A stretch of 64,000 nt of DNA from Alphaproteobacteria bacterium (GTDB taxonomy: Bacteria; Pseudomonadota; Alphaproteobacteria; RF32; CAG-239). Made by a program: the position numbers and the translations under genes. Below are positions 16,134 through 59,965 of the stretch, one piece after another. The notes under the pieces are model-generated. The model was not told the origin of the DNA and did no database searches. It saw nothing but the letters and a program-made list of their open reading frames with translations. Where the stretch lies: NCBI GenBank assembly GCA_045611785.1, contig JAZKXV010000026.1:20382-84381 (forward strand). The letters are read 5' to 3'. The number at the start of each line of letters is the position of its first letter. Position 1 is the first letter of the stretch.

Positions 16134-16541
16134 CTACTTAACATAGGTTGTCATATGGCTTATAATTGCTGCTTCTTGTTGCTTGATTTTAACACTTCCA
16201 CGAATAATATTTTTTAACTCAGGAATATTATTTGATTTAAACATATAAAAATCGCGCTCTTGTCCAGCTGAGTTTAATTTTTCTTTACTCAAATAAATAT
16301 TTAAATCTTGCATAATTTTTTCAAAATCTTCTTTTTTATTTTCTTTTACTCTAAAAGCACAATATTCCTCTGTATCTTTACGACCGATATTAGGATTTCC
16401 AGCTTGTCCGTCTACAACTCTATCCACATAGCCATAATCAATTACAGAATCAAAAATTGCGTCCATATGCTTAGAATATTTTGCATAAGAAAAACTATCA
16501 TCAATAAAATTTTGTTTTCGTAATTTTTCTTTAGCTCCCAT
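16134..16541 (-). CDS. Hypothetical protein
   Basis: ORF track 16134-16586; start moved to MGAKEK because a TTTACA-17-TACATT promoter overlaps the longer start. Confidence 0.55.
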   Translation of the reverse strand: MGAKEKLRKQNFIDDSFSYAKYSKHMDAIFDSVIDYGYVDRVVDGQAGNPNIGRKDTEEYCAFRVKENKKEDFEKIMQDLNIYLSKEKLNSAGQERDFYMFKSNNIPELKNIIRGSVKIKQQEAAIISHMTTYVK

Positions 16542-16664
16542 TTTTTTACCTTTCATAATAAGCTTAAACTTAGACAAATGTAGCATATACCAATACTTTT
16601 GTAAAGCATTAATTTTTGACCTATAATATCTATTGCAAAAAATTAAAAAGAACTTACCATTAAA

Positions 16665-16772
16665 TCCGATGTTATTTGGGAAATAACATCTTTTGGTTGT
16701 AAGAAAAAAGAAGAGCTTGCACAGACTTATTAGAAAAACCGACCACCGCTTAATCCGGTGGTTGTTTTTTTC
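16665..16772 (+). ncRNA. Candidate ~105-nt small RNA
   Basis: TTGCAA-16-TACCAT promoter, 10-bp 5' hairpin gatgttattt/aaataacatc, GC-rich terminator accaccg/cggtggt plus T run, no ORF. Confidence 0.5.
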
Positions 16773-16949
16773 TAAAACATTACATTTTAAAAAATATATC
16801 TTGACAAACTAATACTTAATATGTACATTGAAATTGTTCGGGTACTCGAGGGCAATGGGTACGAACATTAACGACGTGGCCGGTCATCATATTAAAATTA
16901 TATATTTTAAATGTTTGATGAGTTGGCCTTTCTAATGAAAGGTTTTTTT

Positions 16950-17480
16950 ATGTTTAAATATCAACATGGATTTTGCATAATTCGCTGTCAACCATTTCAT
17001 ATCGGACATGACAGATTAATTAAAAAAATGATGGAAGAATGTGCTTTCGGCACAATTTTAATCGGTTCTGCACAAGAAAGCGGAACTGAAAAAAATCCGT
17101 TACCATATTTTACACGTAAAAAAATGATACAAAATGTATGGCGAAAACACCCCGCATATGAACGTTTAAGAATTGTTGCTCTTAAAGATATAAACCATGT
17201 CTTATGGAATGTTCATGTATTAGAAACAATTAAAAAAGAACAATCTGACAAACCTAAACCGGATATTATTTATGTAGGTGATGAAGGTGAATATTCTGTT
17301 TTTGCCAACGATGTGCCAAATGTCGGAATTTGTTCTCGAACAACACAAAGCTTTCCATTTTTATCAGGGAATATGGTTCGAGATATGATAAATTTGAAAG
17401 ATATCAGATATAAAAATTTTGTTCATCAGGAAAACTTAGATTTAATCCAAAAAAGTTTTTATGAAGAAGAAAAAATATAA
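16950..17480 (+). CDS. Nicotinamide-nucleotide adenylyltransferase-like (NadM/NadR NTase domain; HIGH superfamily)
   Basis: RCQPFHIGH, IGSAQESGTEKNPL..R, LSGNMVR; no kinase domain. Confidence 0.8.
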   Translation: MFKYQHGFCIIRCQPFHIGHDRLIKKMMEECAFGTILIGSAQESGTEKNPLPYFTRKKMIQNVWRKHPAYERLRIVALKDINHVLWNVHVLETIKKEQSDKPKPDIIYVGDEGEYSVFANDVPNVGICSRTTQSFPFLSGNMVRDMINLKDIRYKNFVHQENLDLIQKSFYEEEKI

Positions 17481-17481
17481 T

Positions 17482-17574
17482 AGAAACTGCGGTTAGTTTC
17501 TTGATTGATTTGGGTCTTGTAGGGACAGTCGAGACAAATCAATAATTAATAACCTACTGTCGAGGAGAAAAAAC
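17482..17574 (+). promoter_or_regulatory. Structured intercistronic RNA, possible pseudoknot sequestering the SD
   Basis: attgatttg..gtct/agacaaatcaat stem; loop gtagg and gacagt complementary to cctac and actgtc adjacent to SD gaggag. Confidence 0.45.
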
Positions 17575-18768
17575 ATGACTAAACATAGTCAAAACATTCG
17601 TTATGTCGGAACTTGTGCTTTTGGTATCAGAATGCCAATTATTACCCAAGGAGCTGACATTGAAAACATAATTTCTGATACAATCATTGACGCCACAAAA
17701 ACAAAATATCAACCATTAAGTATACATAATGGTGATATAATCGGCATTACGGAATCTTTTTTAGCCAGAGCACAAGGTAACTATATTACTCTTGATGATA
17801 TAGCTCAAGATGTTGCGAAAAAATTTCCATCAGGAGATATTGGCGTAGCTTTCCCTATTTTATCTCGCAACAGATTTGCTAAAATTTTAGAAGGAATTGC
17901 AAAAGGTACAAAAGGCAAAGTATATGTTTTCTTATCTTATCCTGCAGATGAAGTCGGAAATGCAATAATGTATGAAGATGACTTATTTAATTCTGATATA
18001 AACCCATATACAGACATTATTACCAAAGACGATTTCCGTAAAAAATTTGGAACTTTTCATCACCCCATTACAGGTTCTGATCACATACAAATGTATGAAA
18101 ACATTTCAGATAACATCGAAGTGATCCTGCTAAATAATCCTAAAGATATCTTAAAGTTTACCAATCAGGTTATTGTTGCCAGCATACATATACGCAACAG
18201 ACAAAAGCAAATTTTAACCAAACTAGGAGCAAATGTTTGTACATTAGATGAAATCTGCAACACTCCAAGCAAAACTAGAGGTTGGAGTGAATATGGCGTT
18301 TTAGGTTCTAATTATGCTGATAAAAACAGCTTAAAATTATTTCCGAGAGATTCTATGAGTTTTTGCGCTAATTTGCAAAAAATATTAAAAGAAAAAACAG
18401 GTAAACACATTGAAGTATTGATATACGGAGATGGCGGTTTTAAATGTCCGAAAACAAAAATTTGGGAATTTGCAGATCCTGTAGTTTCTCCAGGATATAC
18501 CAATGGTCTGGAAGGCATGCCAAATGAAATTAAAATTAAAGCTGTTGCCGATAATAATAAAGAAAATCCTGAAGAAGCCATAAAACAAGCTATTAATAAT
18601 AAAAAGAAAAACAACGGATTTTACTCAATCGGCACCACGCCTCGTCAAATAACCGATTTATTGGGTTCTTTATGCGACCTGATAACCGGTTCAGGAGACA
18701 AAGGAACACCTGTTGTCTACATAAAAGGATATTTCGATAACTACTTAACCTCAGCACCTACAGAATAA
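17575..18768 (+). CDS. Coenzyme F420-0:L-glutamate ligase-like (CofE family, bacterial long type)
   Basis: GIRMPII..G.D, DIIGITESFLARAQGN, GTTPRQITDLLGSLCDLITGSGDKGTPVVYI. Confidence 0.8.
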   Translation: MTKHSQNIRYVGTCAFGIRMPIITQGADIENIISDTIIDATKTKYQPLSIHNGDIIGITESFLARAQGNYITLDDIAQDVAKKFPSGDIGVAFPILSRNRFAKILEGIAKGTKGKVYVFLSYPADEVGNAIMYEDDLFNSDINPYTDIITKDDFRKKFGTFHHPITGSDHIQMYENISDNIEVILLNNPKDILKFTNQVIVASIHIRNRQKQILTKLGANVCTLDEICNTPSKTRGWSEYGVLGSNYADKNSLKLFPRDSMSFCANLQKILKEKTGKHIEVLIYGDGGFKCPKTKIWEFADPVVSPGYTNGLEGMPNEIKIKAVADNNKENPEEAIKQAINNKKKNNGFYSIGTTPRQITDLLGSLCDLITGSGDKGTPVVYIKGYFDNYLTSAPTE

Positions 18769-18778
18769 GGAACTTGTT

Positions 18779-19294
18779 ATGAGTTTAGAATTAAAAAAAA
18801 GATTTAATAAAATCTTATATACCTTAAAGCATAAAAAAGCATTTTTACAAGTTGAAAAACAGCTAAGAGGGAAAAACACCTGGAGAGGTTATTTACACGA
18901 CGCTGACAAGCCTTTTTTATACATGGCTCTATGGATAAAATTTGAAAACATTCAAAAAATTCATAGAAAAAACAACAGGCATCATGTCAGAAACAATCTA
19001 TCAAAAACAAAGGAAGATTTGTTAGATACAATCATAGATTGGGAATGCGCAAAAATAACCAAACCGGATAAGCCACTTAATGCATATGAAACGCTTATGA
19101 AATATTATCCTGATAAACAAGAAGACTTCTTACCTCTTATCAGAGAATATTTACCGCAACAAATAAAAGATGCCTGCAGAAAACATCAGTTTGAATACAA
19201 AACCAGACACCTTAGATTTGAAAACCATAAAACAAGTTGCAGAATAAACTTATCTGCATTGAATGTTTTTAATCAAAAAAATTTGGGGAGATAA
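18779..19294 (+). CDS. Histidine-rich HD-like hypothetical (DUF5662-like, phage-associated)
   Basis: HKKAF, LHDADKP, HRKNNRHH, IIDWECA. Confidence 0.55.
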   Translation: MSLELKKRFNKILYTLKHKKAFLQVEKQLRGKNTWRGYLHDADKPFLYMALWIKFENIQKIHRKNNRHHVRNNLSKTKEDLLDTIIDWECAKITKPDKPLNAYETLMKYYPDKQEDFLPLIREYLPQQIKDACRKHQFEYKTRHLRFENHKTSCRINLSALNVFNQKNLGR

Positions 19295-19298
19295 AGTT

Positions 19299-19886
19299 GT
19301 GCTGACATTTGAAATTTGGGCAACAATTTTCGGATTGTTGCAAGGTATTCTTGTGCTCTTAAATAACAAATACAATTGGCTGTTTTACATAGCGCAAATC
19401 GGATGTTTAATTGTATTTTCATATTTCAACAAACTATATGCAGACACATTGTGTAACATCATTTACTTAATGTTCGGCATACGAGGATGGATATTATGGA
19501 ACAAAAATAATGCCGTTAAAATCAGCAATTGTTCATTAAAAGAAAAAATTATGTATTCATCCATAATTTGTATCGGTGCATTTTTAATAAATATGGCCTT
19601 AAAAATTACTCCTGACCCATTACCCTTAATTGATGCTGTAACTACATCTTCATCTTTAGTTGCAACATATTATATGGTTAAGAAAAAGTTAGATACATGG
19701 ATAATTTGGTTCATTAATGACATTTGCTACATAATTGAATATTCAATACTGCAAGAACCGGCTTATTATTTGATATCACTGAATACAATCTGGAGCATAA
19801 TGTCTATTATTTCATACTTTAACTGGCGTCGTATTATGAAAGGAGAAAAATATGAAAAAAATATATTTTGCCGGAAAATTCAATAA
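19299..19886 (+). CDS. PnuC-family nucleoside/vitamin transporter
   Basis: Multi-TM; NWLFY, YAD...YL.FGIRGW..W, DAVTTSSSLVATY.M.KK...WIIWFIND; GTG start 8 nt after SD ggggag. Confidence 0.88.
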   Translation: MLTFEIWATIFGLLQGILVLLNNKYNWLFYIAQIGCLIVFSYFNKLYADTLCNIIYLMFGIRGWILWNKNNAVKISNCSLKEKIMYSSIICIGAFLINMALKITPDPLPLIDAVTTSSSLVATYYMVKKKLDTWIIWFINDICYIIEYSILQEPAYYLISLNTIWSIMSIISYFNWRRIMKGEKYEKNIFCRKIQ

Positions 19887-20364
19887 ATCTGAAACACGCC
19901 TAAACTCATTAGAAGGAATGCTAAGAAACGATTATCGTTCACAACTTCTTGGAGATGCAAATTTACTGACGTATTATCAAAAAAACTTAATTATAAACAA
20001 TAAGTTTGAATATATCGGGCCTTTTTATTGCGAACAAGCCTCCAACGGCGATTATACATCAACAGACTGCAAAACCGTACTAAACGCAGAATACAATTTA
20101 ATAAAAAACAGCGATATTTTTGTCGTCGTACTTGGTGAAAGTTTCTCTGTCGGTTCAATAGTCGAGCTTGGATGGGCTTTGCAAGAAAACAAACAAATCA
20201 TAATCTTATATCAAGAAGAAAAATCAGTATATACTATTGCATCAGAATATTGGTTTGCAATTGCCGATGCAATAAATAGATCAAATAACTTATCTGTATT
20301 AAAATATAACAATACAAAAGAAATTGTAAAATTAATTAATCAAGCACTTGAGAAGGAATTATAA
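19852..20364 (+). CDS. Nucleoside 2-deoxyribosyltransferase / N-glycosidase-like protein
   Basis: KIYFAGKF, IKNSDIFVVV, SVGSIVELGWA...K.III (NDT/RCL-type signature). Confidence 0.75.
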   Translation: MKKIYFAGKFNKSETRLNSLEGMLRNDYRSQLLGDANLLTYYQKNLIINNKFEYIGPFYCEQASNGDYTSTDCKTVLNAEYNLIKNSDIFVVVLGESFSVGSIVELGWALQENKQIIILYQEEKSVYTIASEYWFAIADAINRSNNLSVLKYNNTKEIVKLINQALEKEL

Positions 20365-20365
20365 A

Positions 20366-21187
20366 ATGATATACAAAGAATTTGAACTCATACTATCGTC
20401 TTTCAAATGCAACAAAAACTGTCCTTACTGTACAGCAAAAATCACAAAATGGCCGGTTGTAGATGATAAAATAGAAGCATTGGAAAACAAGCTTAAAGAA
20501 TTAAAAGAAAAGGAAATATATTTCAAATATTTCATATTTTGCGGCAACGGAGAACCCTCTTTACATAGTTTTGACACCATAAAAAGAGTGGTCGATGCAA
20601 CACGTAAAATAAACATTTTTGAAGAAAAAAGATTTCAATCATCAGGAAACATATTTTTTGAACCTGAAAAACTCAATTTAATAAAAAATGATTTTACCAT
20701 TGAAATAACCAGAGTAGATTTTGACAGTAAAAAAGATATGCAAATTTTGGGATATAATCAAGATTATATCAACTCTGAAGCCTTTAAAACAGCAAACATC
20801 AGGCTCAATTATGTTTTAATGAAAAACAAAAGTTTTGACACTTACTTAACCGAAATAAAAAAATATATTGATACATATCCAAGCATCAAAACAGTCAGCT
20901 TGAAAACATTAAATTTAAACACATTGAACGGAAAAATTGACAATCCGTATTCTCAATGGATTATAAATAATGCTTTAACAAAAAAAGATGCAAAAAGTAT
21001 AATTGAATTTATGAACAAACATGCAAACATAATTCATCAAGACAAAAAATTTTTTGATAGAATAGAATGGAATTATAAAGGCGTACCAATTACATTTTAC
21101 GTTAAAAAATTGTCTTACGGCGTTTCTAATGTTGTTTGCTATGGCGGTGAGCTTGTCGATTATCATTTAAACAAATTAAGCATATAA
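20366..21187 (+). CDS. Radical SAM protein of unknown function
   Basis: CNKNCPYC and GNGEPSLH; ATG 1 nt after the upstream stop with SD aagga. Confidence 0.85.
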   Translation: MIYKEFELILSSFKCNKNCPYCTAKITKWPVVDDKIEALENKLKELKEKEIYFKYFIFCGNGEPSLHSFDTIKRVVDATRKINIFEEKRFQSSGNIFFEPEKLNLIKNDFTIEITRVDFDSKKDMQILGYNQDYINSEAFKTANIRLNYVLMKNKSFDTYLTEIKKYIDTYPSIKTVSLKTLNLNTLNGKIDNPYSQWIINNALTKKDAKSIIEFMNKHANIIHQDKKFFDRIEWNYKGVPITFYVKKLSYGVSNVVCYGGELVDYHLNKLSI

Positions 21188-21252
21188 TATTAACCAAATA
21201 TTGTATTTTAAATTGTAACATAATTTTCAATTTAAATTATGAGAATATAAAA

Positions 21253-22077
21253 ATGAGATCAGATTTTTTAGAATTTAAAAAATATTATAAAGACACAATA
21301 ATTAAGATACCTGCTGTTTCATTTTTTAAACAATCTATTGATAATAAATTTAAGCATTCACTAAATGTTTTGCACACCGGAATACGTATTATGGCAGAAA
21401 CTCCTGAGCTTGAAAGTATATCTGAAAATTTTCAAATACTAGCTAAAAGAGCTCTCTTATTCCATGATGTCGGCCGTTTTGAAGAAGCTGTAAAAAGATA
21501 CCATACGCCTAATTTGACTGCAGATACAGAAAGCTTAAACCAATATGACCACGGACTTCTTGGTTATCAAACACTAAAAAGTAATCCGACTTATAATGAT
21601 ATAAGAATTTTGCTCGCTATCAAATATCATGGCAAAATGATGGAAGAAGTAAAAGCATCATCATTATGGGAAGAAGCTCAAAACGGAGAGCATAAAAAAG
21701 AAGCTGAACAAATTTTATATTTAGTTCGAGATGCCGATAAATTGGCTAACTTAGAAAAAATTAAAAAAAACGACAAACTGCGAAAAGACTTTTTTTTCAA
21801 GCTATTAACTAAAGAAGCGCTAATTTCTGGCTTATCTCAAACAGTGAAAAAACAATTTTTTGCAAAGCAAACCATTTTGTTTCCGACAGTACATTCTTTT
21901 GCTGATAGAATTTTAATGGTTTTATCATGGTTTTTTGATTTAAATTTCCAAAAATCAAAAGAAATGTTTAAGCAAAAAGAATATACCAAATATCTTTTAG
22001 ATTTACTAGCTCAATACCACACTTTGACAAAAGATATAGAAGAAATCAAGCTGTTTACAGAAGACTCATTTAAGTAA
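21253..22077 (+). CDS. HD-domain phosphohydrolase
   Basis: KFKHS, ALLFHDVGRF, DHG, IKYHG, VRDADKLAN. Confidence 0.85.
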   Translation: MRSDFLEFKKYYKDTIIKIPAVSFFKQSIDNKFKHSLNVLHTGIRIMAETPELESISENFQILAKRALLFHDVGRFEEAVKRYHTPNLTADTESLNQYDHGLLGYQTLKSNPTYNDIRILLAIKYHGKMMEEVKASSLWEEAQNGEHKKEAEQILYLVRDADKLANLEKIKKNDKLRKDFFFKLLTKEALISGLSQTVKKQFFAKQTILFPTVHSFADRILMVLSWFFDLNFQKSKEMFKQKEYTKYLLDLLAQYHTLTKDIEEIKLFTEDSFK

Positions 22078-22198
22078 AATGTAGCAAATCTTAAGCATTT
22101 TTTTGAAAAAAACATTTACTTTTTAATTTTTTTCTCTATAATGCATTCTACAAAAACATTATCAGGTCATATTATTTACTAACTTAATAACACTTCTT

Positions 22199-23101
22199 AT
22201 GAGCAGATTTGTATTAAAAAACACAACCGATGGTACATGTCATTTGTATTTTGATAATCCATCAATTGAAGGCTTTTTAAAGGTAAGTCAAGCAACAAAC
22301 GCTAAATTCTTAAGAGAAAACAACGAGAACTATGTGGTTATGTCTAATGCCGGAGAAACGACCAAAATTTTGTTTGGCATTATTGACGACAGAGTCTTTC
22401 AAGTAACACTGCCTGAACATTCAAAGTTTTTCTTTGTAGACAACCAGTGTATATATGAAAGATATGGAGTGTGGTACAGCATGGTACATGAGCAAGACTC
22501 TTTTGAAGAGAAAAAACTTGGAATTGCACATGAGGAATTCTTATCCTGTCCACAGAACATTCAGTATCGAAAACTTCGCTGGGTATACTTCTTAAAAGAA
22601 GATCAAAACCTTGTAAACATTTGCCATTTTATTGATGGTAAAATTGTCAATTTAGGAAGCTATGTATCGGTTAAAACTGATGGCAATGCAAAAATTTTGG
22701 CTTTGCATTCTGATGGTCATTATGACGTATTCACACCAAATTCAACCGAACCGTACCTAGGTTATCCTAACGAAGTTTTTGAAGCGATAAAAGGCGTGTT
22801 TATATGGTGCTCCGAACAAAAGAAATGGAGATTCGAAGAAAACTGTCGTCTGTACGCTGACAATGCTTTGTTCAGAATTGTGCCCTATGAAGACGGTGAC
22901 ATGTTAAAGCTATATCGCATCACAGAAAACTCAACTGAGTTATTTAAGGCAAGCGTTAACTATCAATTTAGAAACAACCCTTGCAGCCTGTGCATAGACG
23001 ATACAATATACATGCATGACGTTGACAAGTGTTTATTGGATTTCGATAATCCTCAACTAACCTTTAGAAGAAAGCTGAAAAATTTCTTCTGCAAGAAGTA
23101 A
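22199..23101 (+). CDS. Hypothetical beta-rich protein
   Basis: 300-aa ORF with own terminator (ggcttgatacttt/aaagtatcaagcc); SD-less start. Confidence 0.7.
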   Translation: MSRFVLKNTTDGTCHLYFDNPSIEGFLKVSQATNAKFLRENNENYVVMSNAGETTKILFGIIDDRVFQVTLPEHSKFFFVDNQCIYERYGVWYSMVHEQDSFEEKKLGIAHEEFLSCPQNIQYRKLRWVYFLKEDQNLVNICHFIDGKIVNLGSYVSVKTDGNAKILALHSDGHYDVFTPNSTEPYLGYPNEVFEAIKGVFIWCSEQKKWRFEENCRLYADNALFRIVPYEDGDMLKLYRITENSTELFKASVNYQFRNNPCSLCIDDTIYMHDVDKCLLDFDNPQLTFRRKLKNFFCKK

Positions 23102-23258
23102 AGTCTTGGCTTGATACTTTGAAAGTATCAAGCCTTTTTTTATCCTTTTTACATTTCCTAGTGCTTCTACATAAGCCTAACTCACATAAATAAGGTGTAT
23201 AAAAAGCATTGACACAATCTTGATATTTTAGTATTTTAAAAGAAAAAAGAGGATATTA

Positions 23259-55329: not shown

Positions 55330-57057
55330 TTGAGGGAAAACATGACTAATATAGAAAATACAATACAAGAAACTAAAAATGCTTTTGCTGACTATTTTGA
55401 CATGGTCGGAAAGAAAAACTTCAAACAATTTTATTACGATTGGCACGTTGATAACATGTTGGCCCCTTTTGCCAATATGGTATATTATTTCGATGTTAAC
55501 TATGGAGATCAAGCTAAAGATAAATTTCATGCTTTTGTAGAAGATGTTACTTTATGTGTATCTCACTTTGATGTAGATAAACCTCAAATCAGTCCATTAA
55601 CTACACAAAAACACTCTAATACAACAGATGGCAAACTTACAGAAATGATAAACGGAATGAGAACTTTCGGTTTTGAATTTCGTCAGTTTATATATAGCTT
55701 TGCATCTAAACAAGACCATATGGATGAGTTTGGTTATTGGCCGATAAAAACCAATATGCCTTATGCTTGCAAACACGGATTAATGGTTGCAAACGATATC
55801 TTACGTTATTTAGATGCAAATTTTGAAAAAATACGCTCGGAAGACAATGTATATAACAGAGCTTTATACGCTGCAGATACTTATTTACGCAAAAACATTG
55901 TTAAAGAATATCAATATAAACCAGGTTATACATTTGCCGACAGAAAAGAACATATACGCAGACTTCACAGCTTACGCAATCAATTAAGTAAAGAGTTTGA
56001 AGCAATGCCTAAAACAAATGCCAAATTAAATGATATGTTCCAAGTTGAAAATAATTTAGCAAGACCTGTACAAAGTCATTCATATTGGCCATCAGGATTT
56101 GAATTAGAATTTTATGTACCTGAAGAATATGGCGATTATGGTGTTCTCATAGACTACTTAAAACAAAAAAACGGATGGGAAAAATTATACTCAACAAATA
56201 AAGATGCTTCCGTATATCATGATCCTAAATCTGCCGGCGTAATAATGCGTGATGAAAGTCTGGCTCCATATAACAGCTTAGCTCCTGTTGAATTTGCAAG
56301 CCGTATCATGCGTAGCAAAGAAGATGAAGATTATTGTTTAAAAATATTAGATTCTTTTGATCAAGGACATGTAAATAAGCATTGCTCATTACACCAACAT
56401 TTATCAACTCAGGATTTTACAATGGAAACATATAGACGTTTGGTAAAAAGAATGATGCAACACGAAGATGAAATAGTTGGAGCTTTTGCTGCACCTGAGC
56501 GTGGAAACAACAATTTGTTGTATGCAACATATATCAGCCGCAATTTAAGCGAAAATAACAAAAGAGATTATCCGTTTTTAAGCATAATGGTAGATTTATG
56601 TGAAACAAAACAAGAGTTAGAAGAAATGTCTGCGTTTGGAAACAAATATAAAACATTAAACGTTCTTCCTTCTCATACTGTTGAAATGCGTGCGATGAAT
56701 GCAAATTTCAATAAACGTTTTGTAGAAGCATATTTACAGTTTAATCGTGAGTTTGTTGCCGCAGCAGTAGAAAATAATCCTCATCATGTAAATAGATTCT
56801 TGCTTAATAAATATACATGGCATAACAATCAATCAACAGATACAAAAACTGTTATGCACGATTTGGCATACGGATATGACTTTGTTCCTCACGACTCATA
56901 TCGTCCTATGAAAAAAACAGTTTCATCAAAAACTGTACAAGATGAACAAGTATATGCTAGAATGGTGATGCAAGCCTTAACCACAACCGGTAAATTAGGA
57001 TATTTAAATCCTAGTCATCAAAAAAGATTAAAGGAAACAATATATCATGGAAAATAA
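55330..57057 (+). CDS. Putative COOH-NH2 amidoligase (Amidoligase_2-like) with N-terminal extension
   Basis: GFELEF, RDESL, VEFASRI, VNKHCSLHQH, KYKTLN, TVEMR. Confidence 0.75.
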   Translation: MRENMTNIENTIQETKNAFADYFDMVGKKNFKQFYYDWHVDNMLAPFANMVYYFDVNYGDQAKDKFHAFVEDVTLCVSHFDVDKPQISPLTTQKHSNTTDGKLTEMINGMRTFGFEFRQFIYSFASKQDHMDEFGYWPIKTNMPYACKHGLMVANDILRYLDANFEKIRSEDNVYNRALYAADTYLRKNIVKEYQYKPGYTFADRKEHIRRLHSLRNQLSKEFEAMPKTNAKLNDMFQVENNLARPVQSHSYWPSGFELEFYVPEEYGDYGVLIDYLKQKNGWEKLYSTNKDASVYHDPKSAGVIMRDESLAPYNSLAPVEFASRIMRSKEDEDYCLKILDSFDQGHVNKHCSLHQHLSTQDFTMETYRRLVKRMMQHEDEIVGAFAAPERGNNNLLYATYISRNLSENNKRDYPFLSIMVDLCETKQELEEMSAFGNKYKTLNVLPSHTVEMRAMNANFNKRFVEAYLQFNREFVAAAVENNPHHVNRFLLNKYTWHNNQSTDTKTVMHDLAYGYDFVPHDSYRPMKKTVSSKTVQDEQVYARMVMQALTTTGKLGYLNPSHQKRLKETIYHGK

Positions 57058-57802
57058 TGTTTTTACAGTTCTAAACCCAGATTCTGAATTTGAACTAATT
57101 TTAACTGCTGAGCATGCCAACGCTCAAATTCCGGAAGAATATAACAATCTTGGCTTAGATAAAGCAAAATTAGATACTCATATTGCAAGAGATAAAGGAG
57201 CTAAACGCATAACAGAAATGTTAGCACAAAAACTAAACTGCTTTGCAATAATGGGAAACTATTCTCGTTTACTGATTGACCTAAACCGCAAAGAAAATGA
57301 AGCAGAATTAATAGTAAGCACAAGTGATAAAGTTGTTGTTCCTCAAAATCAAAACATATCTGAAGAAGAAAAAAAATTCAGAGTGAAAAAATATTATCAG
57401 CCATATTATCAAGCATTAGAAGAAAAAATTATGCAATTACAAAAAAATGGGAAAACACCTATTATTTTTTCAGTTCATAGTTACACTCCTCAATTGCAAG
57501 ATGGAGCATATCGTCCTTGGCATGCCGGAATATTGTATAATCAAAAAACCAATTTGGCCGATTTCTTATTCAAAGAGTTGAGCCAAACAGATAAAACCAT
57601 TGGAGAAAATGTTCCTTACGATTTAAGAAAATATAACACCGGAACCGTTATTATTTGCGGACAAGATAAAGGCCTCGATTATGCTCTTATTGAAATCAGA
57701 GATGACGAATTTGATAATTTGGAACAAGGCGCACAATTTTGGACCGATGCATTGGAAAAAGCCTTATTAAAATATTTCAATAAAAAAACTCTTAAAGAAT
57801 AA
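57047..57802 (+). CDS. N-formylglutamate amidohydrolase family
   Basis: LTAEHA, HIARDKG, SRLLIDLNR, YYQPYY, SVHSYTP, RPWHAGIL, LIEIR.D. Confidence 0.9.
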   Translation: MENNVFTVLNPDSEFELILTAEHANAQIPEEYNNLGLDKAKLDTHIARDKGAKRITEMLAQKLNCFAIMGNYSRLLIDLNRKENEAELIVSTSDKVVVPQNQNISEEEKKFRVKKYYQPYYQALEEKIMQLQKNGKTPIIFSVHSYTPQLQDGAYRPWHAGILYNQKTNLADFLFKELSQTDKTIGENVPYDLRKYNTGTVIICGQDKGLDYALIEIRDDEFDNLEQGAQFWTDALEKALLKYFNKKTLKE

Positions 57803-58588: not shown

Positions 58589-58696
58589 AATTTTCTAATT
58601 ATTAGTTTCTGGACCAAAAGTAACATATTAAGCTATATTTGTCAAATAAAAAAGCACCTCTATTGAGGTGCTTTAAGCAAGATATTTTAATTTACC

Positions 58697-59965
58697 TTAA
58701 TCTTCATATTTTTTCAAAACGATTGAAGAGTTTGTTCCACCAAAGCCAAATGAGTTTGACATTGCTGCCTTAATTTCTTTTTTCTTTGGTTTTAATGGAA
58801 CTAAGTCAATATCAGCCACTTCATCTTCAACATCTTCTAAGTTAAGTGTTGGAGGACAAATTTGATCACGAATAGCAAGTGTTGTATAAACAGCTTCAAC
58901 CGCACCTGCAGCACCAAGTAAGTGACCGATAGCAGATTTTGTAGATGACATAGAAACTGTTTGCATATTTTCACCAAACAAACGTTTAACAGCTTTAGCT
59001 TCTCCAACGTCACCTGCAGGAGTAGATGTTCCGTGAGCATTGATATAATGAATATCTTTTAATTCAATACCATGTTCTTTAGCATGATCTGTAGCCATCT
59101 TCATTGCGCGATATGCACCATCACCTGAAGGAGCTGTAATGTGATAAGCATCACCACTCATACCATAGCCTACAACTTCAGCATAGATTTTTGCACCACG
59201 TGCTTTTGCATGTTCTAATTCTTCCAAAACAACAGCACCGGCACCCTCACCCATAACGAAACCGCTTCTGTTTTTATCCCATGGACGAGAAGCTTTTTCC
59301 GGATTGTCATTAAATTCTGCGGTAATAGCCTTCATACGAGCAAAACCTGCCAAACCTAACACATTAACAGCAGCTTCTGCACCACCTGCAACCATAGCAT
59401 CGGCATCACCCATCGCAATCATTTTTGCGGCATCACCAATTGCATGAGTACCTGTTGAACAAGCTGTAACACATGCATGGTTTGGTCCTTTAAGACCAAA
59501 CATAATAGACAGGTTACCTGAAATAAGGTTAATTAAACAAGATGGAATAAAAAATGGAGAAATGCGCTTTATACCAGATTCATTAAAAGATATAGCATTT
59601 TCATAAATTGCATTCAAACCACCGATACCAGCGCCCATCATCACACCAAAACGATATTGTTCTTCTTCAGTTTGAGGAATATAGCCACTATCTCTAATTG
59701 CATCTGCACCAGCAGCCAAACCAAACAATATGAACTTATCATTTTTCTTTTGATCCTTTGGCGGTAAAACATCATCAGGATTAAATTCACCTTCACCATC
59801 ACCGTAAGGAACACGACCTGCAATTTGAACCGGAATATCTTTTAAATCGATATCAGTAATTTTTACCACCCCCGATTCTGAATTTAACAAACGTTTCCAA
59901 TTGTGCTCTGCACCACGTCCTAAAGGAGAAACAACGCCCAAACCGGTAATTACAACTCTTCTCAT
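58697..59965 (-). CDS. fabF: Beta-ketoacyl-ACP synthase II
   Basis: VTACSTG, DAYHIT, INAHGTST, STKSAIGHLLGAAG, SNSFGFGGTN. Confidence 0.97.
   Translation of the reverse strand: MRRVVITGLGVVSPLGRGAEHNWKRLLNSESGVVKITDIDLKDIPVQIAGRVPYGDGEGEFNPDDVLPPKDQKKNDKFILFGLAAGADAIRDSGYIPQTEEEQYRFGVMMGAGIGGLNAIYENAISFNESGIKRISPFFIPSCLINLISGNLSIMFGLKGPNHACVTACSTGTHAIGDAAKMIAMGDADAMVAGGAEAAVNVLGLAGFARMKAITAEFNDNPEKASRPWDKNRSGFVMGEGAGAVVLEELEHAKARGAKIYAEVVGYGMSGDAYHITAPSGDGAYRAMKMATDHAKEHGIELKDIHYINAHGTSTPAGDVGEAKAVKRLFGENMQTVSMSSTKSAIGHLLGAAGAVEAVYTTLAIRDQICPPTLNLEDVEDEVADIDLVPLKPKKKEIKAAMSNSFGFGGTNSSIVLKKYED

Follow-up and report, generated by a model that had tools for sequence, protein, structure and literature searches.

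A conserved Pnu-type transporter, NDT-fold N-glycosidase-like protein and radical SAM enzyme, encoded behind a riboswitch-like leader in a gut alphaproteobacterium

We analysed a stretch of 64,000 nucleotides from an uncultured gut alphaproteobacterium (contig JAZKXV010000026.1, positions 20,382 to 84,381; hereafter the window, GC ~32%) and found that three adjacent genes on its + strand form a real module, the linkage of which far exceeds chance. They encode a Pnu-family (PnuC-like) facilitator (19299–19886), a protein with the fold of nucleoside 2-deoxyribosyltransferases (NDT; 19852–20364) and a 273-aa radical S-adenosylmethionine (SAM) enzyme of a small unnamed family (20366–21187). The original prediction, made from the letters of this DNA, had proposed that the three gene products import and remodel a nucleoside, and the conserved linkage described below supports the view of the trio as a conserved, functionally coupled and uncharacterised module that most likely does so. 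The assembly of the stretch was confirmed by DNA contigs from four gut metagenomes. In the literature searched, no paper connects PnuC with either of the two partner types, radical SAM enzymes and NDT-fold glycosidases.

Related loci were collected from genomes (32, with one genome per species), from metagenomes (80) and from IMG/VR (6), and the linkage was counted in the loci with a radical SAM protein at least 55% identical and at least 1.3 kb of upstream sequence (n = 44). In 43 of these 44 loci, all three genes stand side by side in the same order. At about 40% identity, the NDT and radical SAM proteins become a single polypeptide encoded behind PnuC (L029, L068, L073, L065/L066 and L072), and these fusions are found in a locus labelled Erysipelotrichaceae (L029) as well as on phage-like contigs (L065/L066 and L072). 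Fusions exist in both orders among the protein representatives, with the NDT part first in P0122 and the radical SAM part first in P0132 and P0130, and the unfused genes occur in the order PnuC, radical SAM, NDT on a 416-kb IMG/VR contig (L037). In a maximum-likelihood tree of the radical SAM proteins, the members linked to PnuC and NDT form one clade (99/96 support). Co-occurrence of the trio elsewhere had been named beforehand as a test of the proposal, which thus survived it. The lone exception among the 44 loci (L028, 8001–8363) holds the C-terminal 121 codons of the radical SAM gene only (85% identical), without PnuC and NDT, and may be a remnant or an assembly break.

The tight coupling of the three genes in the window, already noted from the sequence, was confirmed by the open reading frames (ORFs) and by a reading of the junctions, with a Shine-Dalgarno (SD) sequence in front of each gene. 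The PnuC-like gene most likely starts at GTG 19299, 8 nt behind GGGGAG and 4 nt past the stop of the upstream gene, and an in-frame ATG at 19263 is a possible alternative start. The NDT-like gene starts at ATG 19852 behind AGGAG and overlaps the PnuC gene by 35 nt. For the radical SAM gene, the start codon is ATG 20366, preceded by GAAGGA, with a gap of 1 nt to the NDT-like gene. Since the radical SAM homologues (271–287 aa; 120 homologues listed) all begin at the Met of ATG 20366, this codon, and not an upstream TTG, is taken as the start.

The window proteins were assigned to families with Pfam and NCBIfam profiles, and folds were compared by searching AlphaFold2 (AF2) models against the PDB with Foldseek. 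Pnu transporters are the textbook case of uptake by metabolic trapping with a kinase, and further substrates of the family are thiamine and riboflavin, with deoxynucleosides as a predicted one. The window protein matches PF04973 (4.4e-33) over profile positions 3–175 of 175 and TIGR01528 with 55.6 bits against a cut-off of 42.45. The motif WxxW(x)3D/N in transmembrane helix 6, which binds the ligand in this family (PMC5749112), is present as WIIWFIND and aligns to WALWIVVN of PDB 4QTN, although the similarity to the sole solved PnuC is only 29 bits.

The NDT-fold protein belongs, judging by its sequence matches, motifs and modelled fold, to the MilB/BcmB/DNPH1 subgroup of nucleoside-5'-monophosphate (NMP) N-glycosidases. 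Its best PDB sequence matches are BcmB (7e-6), MilB (3e-5) and BlsM (8e-3), and its AF2 model (predicted local distance difference test, pLDDT, 89) finds BcmB, MilB and DNPH1 at Foldseek ranks 1–10 (TMt 0.6–0.78). A nucleoside 2-deoxyribosyltransferase proper was considered and rejected, since the match to PF05014 (1.7e-6, 28.6 bits) falls just under the cut-off of 28.8, and true NDTs are matched at 0.05–1.5 in the PDB, compared to 7e-6 for BcmB, and at rank 33 by fold. In MilB, E103 is catalytic and the S97/G99 loop binds the 5'-phosphate (PMC4081090). The corresponding Glu of the window protein lies in VGSIVELGWA, which aligns to THVEIGWA, and is invariant in 15–19 homologues; the Ser-x-Gly loop is present as S-V-G-S, aligned to S-P-G-T, with Ser and Gly at least 90% conserved. 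All homologues carry the motif S-x-G-[ST]-x-x-E-L and an invariant Glu at the position of MilB Asp78. This is one of the base-recognition sites (F22-R/K23 and D78 in MilB), and at the other, the N-terminal YFAGKF is similar to F-L-G-G-P-F-(R/K) but lacks the R/K. As Asp78 is replaced by Glu and the Arg/Lys is lost, the specificity would differ from CMP and hydroxymethyl-CMP (hmCMP), and the substrate is probably another nucleoside 5'-monophosphate.

The CMP/hmCMP N-glycosidases MilB, BcmB and BlsM and the dNMP hydrolase DNPH1/RCL (PDB 4JEM, 4JEN, 5VTO) match the protein best in both sequence and fold and have the catalytic Glu and the Ser-x-Gly loop in common with it, but the identity is only 15–18% and the protein has an extra conserved insert, GPFYCEQASNGxxTS. 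Whereas the partners of MilB-type enzymes are a CMP hydroxymethylase or a cytosylglucuronic acid synthase, here they are a Pnu channel and a radical SAM enzyme. The comparison with BlsM made in the original prediction proved apt, given that BcmB, MilB and BlsM are the best solved relatives of the protein. Like the blasticidin S and mildiomycin clusters (BlsM-BlsE and MilB-MilG), the trio combines an NDT-fold NMP hydrolase with a radical SAM enzyme. In the blasticidin-type pathway, a glycosyltransferase links BlsM to BlsE; unlike in those clusters, there is neither a cytosylglucuronic acid synthase nor another tailoring gene here, and the context is a primary-metabolism operon in reduced gut genomes rather than an actinomycete antibiotic cluster.

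The radical SAM protein represents a new family within its superfamily, without any named, characterised or solved member. It matches PF04055 with 30.6 bits against a cut-off of 29.5, and only three Cys (C15-x3-C19-x2-C22) are invariant in 27 family members, with GNGEP conserved; no NCBIfam model reaches its cut-off, and NrdG2 is matched weakly. A search of 1.84 billion protein representatives (clusters at 50% identity, E <= 0.001) found 93 clusters of the family. The AF2 model (pLDDT 91) has radical SAM proteins as all of its top matches, with MoaA and viperin-like enzymes as the nearest folds (TM 0.58–0.66), followed by anSME and BlsE (rank 18). The family profile matches viperin-like proteins (0.003) and QueE (0.007) in the PDB, only over the cluster-binding third (the N-terminal 110 residues for the viperin-like proteins). 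MoaA (GTP 3',8-cyclase) and viperin/pVip (NTP 3'-deoxy-3',4'-didehydro synthases) are the nearest solved folds and of similar size, and members of the family, in common with viperins, show links to nucleotide kinases. MoaA and viperins act on NTPs. The family differs from both in lacking an auxiliary C-terminal cluster, in a profile match limited to the cluster-binding region and in a distinct C-terminal domain. An identity as MoaA itself was rejected, as the Cys of the second C-terminal [4Fe-4S] cluster were not found in the 27 members and neither NCBIfam nor Pfam gave a MoaA match.

The nearness to viperins raises a conflict system that makes a modified nucleotide or nucleoside, antiviral in bacteria and serving counter-defence or competition in phages, with the Pnu channel supplying the precursor or releasing the product. 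We regard such a system as quite unlikely. It is favoured by the viperin-like enzymes among the nearest folds and best PDB profile matches, by a weak match to the PADLOC model 'viperins associated with kinases', by the presence of family members on phage-like contigs, and by another clade in which fusions of Cmk to the radical SAM protein lie beside CYTH, MBL and PHP proteins. However, the pVip match covers a 63-residue cluster-binding region only (residues 14–81) at 21 bits and no other PADLOC defence model is matched, so that an assignment to pVip or another defence system was rejected. The radical SAM enzyme likewise finds no match by tblastn in 50,697 GenBank phages, the operons are of a housekeeping type, with NadM or with RdgB and NrtR, and the glycosidase would destroy a chain terminator.

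Two further readings turn on the kind of radical chemistry. In a deoxynucleoside salvage, a PnuN-type transporter would act with an NDT, and the radical SAM enzyme would perform or activate a 2'-deoxygenation-type step. The matches to the Pfam NDT models and the weak NrdG2 match in NCBIfam are consistent with this, as is the 3'-H abstraction of MoaA-type enzymes, chemistry that also starts ribonucleotide reduction. Against it, a Ser replaces the sugar-hydroxyl-binding Asp of true NDTs, the protein ranks with the NMP hydrolases and the NrdD or NrdR context is absent, which leaves this reading very improbable.

The other is a non-orthologous analogue of queuosine salvage, or the salvage of another hypermodified RNA nucleoside. 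The trio shares with QueT/QrtT-QueK-QueL of the Clostridioides difficile type a three-part logic of transporter, nucleoside hydrolase and small radical SAM lyase (PMC11130926), and the gut is a habitat where such salvage operates and where many organisms have no identified transporter for queuosine precursors (PMC11130926). Nevertheless, the parts are all non-homologous (Pnu, NDT-fold and another radical SAM family here; an energy-coupling factor transporter, IunH-fold and QueL there). QueL (PDB 6P78) is not found at E <= 10 with the radical SAM family profile and appears at Foldseek rank 43 with 10% identity, a generic fold match without a sequence link, so that QueL-type salvage proper was rejected. 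Moreover, tgt, que genes and the preQ1 riboswitch were not found in 13 loci, and the neighbours point to NAD and purine metabolism. We consider that a queuosine-type analogue has hardly any likelihood.

Other clades of the radical SAM family occur in different surroundings. In about 35 phage-like loci (L038–L041 and L074–L101), a sister clade always lies between an 80-aa ORF and a 223-aa protein resembling the catalytic core of SerRS (TIGR00414, 2e-25); these loci have no NDT or PnuC gene, and the arrangement resembles amino acid:carrier-protein ligase systems. The phage-like locus L035 (1178–6570) holds a nucleotide-remodelling gene block, in which tandem radical SAM genes are found alongside a PurZ-like adenylosuccinate synthetase homologue (NF038379, 195 bits, below cut-off), NADAR, a PurC-like 345-aa protein, a Ham1-like protein and a P-loop kinase. 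Tandem radical SAM paralogues, 35–40% identical to the window protein, also occur in L063/L064, L069 and L070 without NDT or PnuC, and their amino-acid composition deviates from the remaining alignment.

Outside the window's lineage, the trio has other neighbours. In a second, sister lineage (labelled Clostridia or Bacilli; GC 24–35%), the operon comprises genes for an NrtR-like regulator, RdgB, PnuC, NDT, the radical SAM enzyme, a CYTH::P-loop kinase, a PLC-like protein and a metallophosphoesterase. In 13 loci (e.g., L015 8838–9734 and L048 3341–4252), the CYTH::P-loop kinase gene comes immediately after that of the radical SAM enzyme; its product of ~300 aa combines the CYTH ExExK motif with a thymidylate-kinase-like P-loop (Walker A EGTDGVGKT), and it shows no Pfam or NCBIfam family above threshold and no NadR match. 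Hence, the earlier statement that no kinase accompanies the trio stands for the operon and the window but does not extend beyond this lineage. In a third lineage, a PLC-like gene is followed by PnuC, a radical SAM::NDT fusion and a metallophosphoesterase. The PnuC operons of seven loci (L015, L017, L018, L051, L053, L056 and L067) carry paired palindromes of the type TACTTATTGTAAAAAATACAAGAAGTA, with an NrtR-like GT-N7-AC core, which bracket their -35 and -10 boxes.

These neighbours would also suit a sanitation or detoxification of the nucleotide pool, which we nonetheless judge unlikely. Here, a non-canonical or toxic nucleos(t)ide would be phosphorylated, or RdgB, MazG or CYTH enzymes would trim it to its monophosphate. 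Processing would fall to the radical SAM enzyme and destruction to the DNPH1-like glycosidase, with the Pnu channel passing the nucleoside in or out. RdgB is encoded in the operon in 12–14 loci, and in the sister lineage its gene and PnuC are only 3 nt apart. L033 has a MazG-like gene close to the fused gene, and the top fold matches of the NDT-fold protein include DNPH1, which is known to sanitise the nucleotide pool. Phosphoesterases also recur beside the cassette, with metallophosphoesterase and DHH genes flanking it in other lineages. However, RdgB is widespread as a housekeeping gene, regulators related to damage are absent, and a dedicated importer under NrtR or leader control better fits the acquisition of a nutrient.

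In the window, the trio forms the downstream end of a longer operon on one strand, which the coordinates of the original prediction truncate; the true start lies ~2.5 kb upstream, with a leader, a NadM-like gene, a CofE-like gene and a gene for a 171-aa protein. Transcription would start from a promoter-like site, TTGACA-17-TACATT (16801–16829, +), and related loci have TTGACA and a -10 box at the same position. It is followed by a structured leader RNA of ~120 nt (16832–16952, +). The loop of its P1 stem, GAGGGCAAU, is invariant; the other elements are a small GAC/GUC hairpin, in which UGGCC is invariant, a variable hairpin and a terminator hairpin (16925–16944), whose 3' arm holds the SD sequence just before ATG 16950 and would thereby occlude it. 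The leader is conserved in all 26 loci with a NadM-like gene. In an alignment of 20 loci, RNAalifold predicts 24 pairs, with 98% of cells paired, and compensatory changes are found in 7 pairs, compared to 2.8 in shuffles and 0–2 in slid controls, with covariation in P1. The covariance model finds exactly one copy per locus (106–140 bits), always before the NadM-like gene, and no copy before PnuC in other lineages. Rfam returned nothing relevant for the window and 13 loci at the gathering score, nor for 16500–19400 at E <= 5. From alignment and covariation, the leader appears to be riboswitch-like and an orphan, without an Rfam family, and we suggest that the invariant UGGCC could pair with the 5' arm of the terminator.

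A second leader copy in the window was rejected, as the sole weak match (58645–58751) is a terminator behind a fabF-like gene. Weak matches to the leader model also lie in the NadM-CofE spacer of L019 (5672–5773) and L021 (2031–2129; 24 and 20 bits, E 0.03–0.17), and this spacer may hold a degenerate second element; the corresponding spacer of the window (17481–17574) gives no match at E <= 1. Just upstream of the operon promoter, a region without an ORF (16599–16772, +) holds a promoter-like site and then a strong GC-rich hairpin with a T-run (16740–16764), which may be a small transcript or a bidirectional terminator.

The first gene behind the leader (16950–17480, +) encodes an NMN adenylyltransferase-like nucleotidyltransferase of the NadM (archaeal) type (NMN, nicotinamide mononucleotide). 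It matches PF01467 and, below cut-off, TIGR01527 (2.6e-14), has archaeal NMN adenylyltransferases as its best PDB matches, carries a PFHIGH motif and is found upstream of the trio in 25 loci. The second (17575–18768, +) encodes a protein of the CofE-like (F420-0:gamma-glutamyl ligase) family with a large insertion (PF01996, 3.4e-48), which is present in 21 loci of the window's lineage and has no match among PDB sequences. The third (18779–19294, +) encodes a 171-aa protein, with function unassigned and a faint DUF5662 match, which is present in 24–25 loci, and a homologous domain is fused to a DHH phosphoesterase in one sister locus. Homology of the 171-aa protein to the PLC-like proteins encoded ahead of PnuC in other lineages was rejected (hhalign probability 0.1%). 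A terminator scan finds no terminator-like site on the + strand from 17054 to 23108; short 6-pair hairpins lie inside the NadM-like gene at 17040–17054 (+) and 17155–17141 (-). The first strong intrinsic terminator 3' of the operon (23108–23134, +) lies behind an unrelated 300-aa ORF.

The NadM-like gene raises the reading of an ordinary uptake of nicotinamide riboside (NR), in which PnuC feeds NR to NadM, the kinase is encoded elsewhere and the NDT-fold and radical SAM proteins do an unrelated job. In addition to NadM in the operon and a TIGR01528 score above its cut-off, the NrtR control matches the nadR-pnuC-nrtR operons of Streptococcus (PMC2330246), and PnuC with NadR is a known two-gene pathway (PMC13464706). 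Despite this, PnuC, NDT and the radical SAM gene stay together in loci where NadM is absent, the last two are fused beside PnuC in distant lineages, and the trio is tightly coupled at the level of translation. We therefore find ordinary NR uptake improbable as a full account. The operon does resemble PnuC-NadR salvage of NR (bacterial salvage III, and NARP3 of phages; PMC13464706) and the NrtR-controlled nadR-pnuC-nrtR operons (PMC2330246) in that a Pnu facilitator is coupled to intracellular enzymes that trap a riboside, with an NMN adenylyltransferase-type gene in the operon here and NrtR-type regulators and a P-loop kinase in the sister lineage; like NARP3, the cassette also lies on phage genomes, in phage-like contigs. 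In contrast to these systems, NadR and a ribosylnicotinamide kinase domain were not found in the eight operon genes, which include only the NadM-type adenylyltransferase, and the invariant partners of the cassette, an NMP N-glycosidase-like protein and a radical SAM enzyme, set it apart from PnuC-NadR salvage. As mentioned, the parts belong to known superfamilies, and the logic of the cassette resembles that of known salvage cassettes. To our knowledge, neither an NMP N-glycosidase-like enzyme nor a radical SAM enzyme has a place in any known NAD salvage route.

The reading that we favour, tentatively, is that the trio is one functional cassette for the facilitated diffusion of a riboside into the cell and for its conversion there at the nucleotide level. 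This general import-and-convert model builds on the observed gene coupling, co-occurrence and fusions, on the family and fold assignments and catalytic motifs, and on the leader and operators. First, the Pnu channel would admit the riboside, which a kinase, encoded in the cassette in the sister lineage and presumably unlinked here, would phosphorylate. The MoaA/viperin-like radical SAM enzyme could then abstract a hydrogen from the nucleotide and rearrange or eliminate a group. Finally, the MilB/DNPH1-like enzyme would cleave the N-glycosidic bond of the 5'-phosphorylated intermediate, which would release the base and a pentose phosphate and make the uptake irreversible. What we infer are the direction in which transport runs, the sequence of the steps, a substrate at the nucleotide level and the link to NAD. 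The kinases, the triphosphate-handling enzymes and the phosphate-dependent glycosidase, together with nearest folds that act on NTPs, suggest that a nucleoside enters by way of the Pnu channel and undergoes radical chemistry in phosphorylated form. The operon here, controlled by a leader and headed by NadM-type and CofE-like genes, and the NrtR-type operators elsewhere suggest that the product most likely feeds NAD/adenylate-type cofactor or nucleotide pools.

We are less confident of any specific substrate than of this general model. Three features, namely the NadM gene, NrtR-type control and membership of the Pnu family, speak for NAD-type metabolism, whereas the links to purA/purB and RdgB indicate adenylate or inosinate pools. 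Several observations weigh against the model or its link to NAD. Purine rather than pyridine metabolism is what the purA/purB, PurA and PurZ-like neighbours point to: in L053, purA-purB is preceded by the same operator architecture as the PnuC operons, and therefore the regulon includes AMP synthesis; in L072, a bona fide PurA gene separates PnuC from the fused gene; and in L035, the PurZ-like gene adjoins a family member. NrtR-family regulators also control pentose and phosphoribosyl pyrophosphate (PRPP) genes (PMC2330246). A phosphate-dependent N-glycosidase that acts on NMN would destroy a NAD precursor instead of making one. No kinase domain was found in the eight operon genes with Pfam and NCBIfam, and tblastn of the sister-lineage kinase against the 64-kb window gave no match. 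Pnu channels are bidirectional facilitators, and export is hence also conceivable. The substrate can be deduced only weakly across the family, because other radical SAM clades have quite different partners, such as a carrier protein and a SerRS-like ligase. Lastly, none of the RNA runs searched contains the stretch.

A more specific version of the import-and-convert model is that the triad is a new radical route that turns an imported gut riboside into an essential precursor, under a new riboswitch class (16832–16952) in this lineage. Examples would be a new anaerobic way into NAD-type cofactor synthesis, around the NadR-type kinases, or a sugar modification like that of ribonucleotide reductase. 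We put this forward as a speculative version that is rather unlikely to hold.

The trio is followed by a gene for an HD-domain protein (21253–22077, +; PF01966, 3.6e-7), separated from the radical SAM gene by a 65-nt spacer. The original prediction had listed this hydrolase along with the trio, but it does not belong to the set: no HD homologue lies beside the radical SAM gene in the 121 other loci with a radical SAM family member, the HD family is confined to the same group of metagenome-assembled genomes (MAGs), and in a relative the 67%-identical orthologue sits behind a methionine aminopeptidase gene and before glycosyltransferase genes. The HD protein has no match among PDB sequences. There is no terminator between the trio and the HD gene, which is possibly co-transcribed with the trio here, but it is an incidental neighbour in this species and not a member of the module. 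Elsewhere in the window (55330–57802, +), the gene for a protein with an amidoligase_2 domain (575 aa) overlaps at its stop the start of the next gene, which encodes an N-formylglutamate amidohydrolase-like protein.

In summary, the invariant partners of this Pnu channel are an N-glycosidase and a radical SAM enzyme, and not the kinase of textbook trapping. The cassette is common to several groups of uncultured, genome-reduced gut bacteria and to large phages, and this sharing suggests that it may mark a nutrient exchange in the gut missed by current metabolic reconstructions, with a modified nucleoside or a compound of the vitamin B3 type as the nutrient. The cassette offers two regulatory handles, the conserved orphan leader RNA and the NrtR-type operators. 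The ligand of the leader or the substrate of the radical SAM enzyme, if identified, would assign a function to the whole enzyme family and could reveal a new radical nucleotide chemistry.

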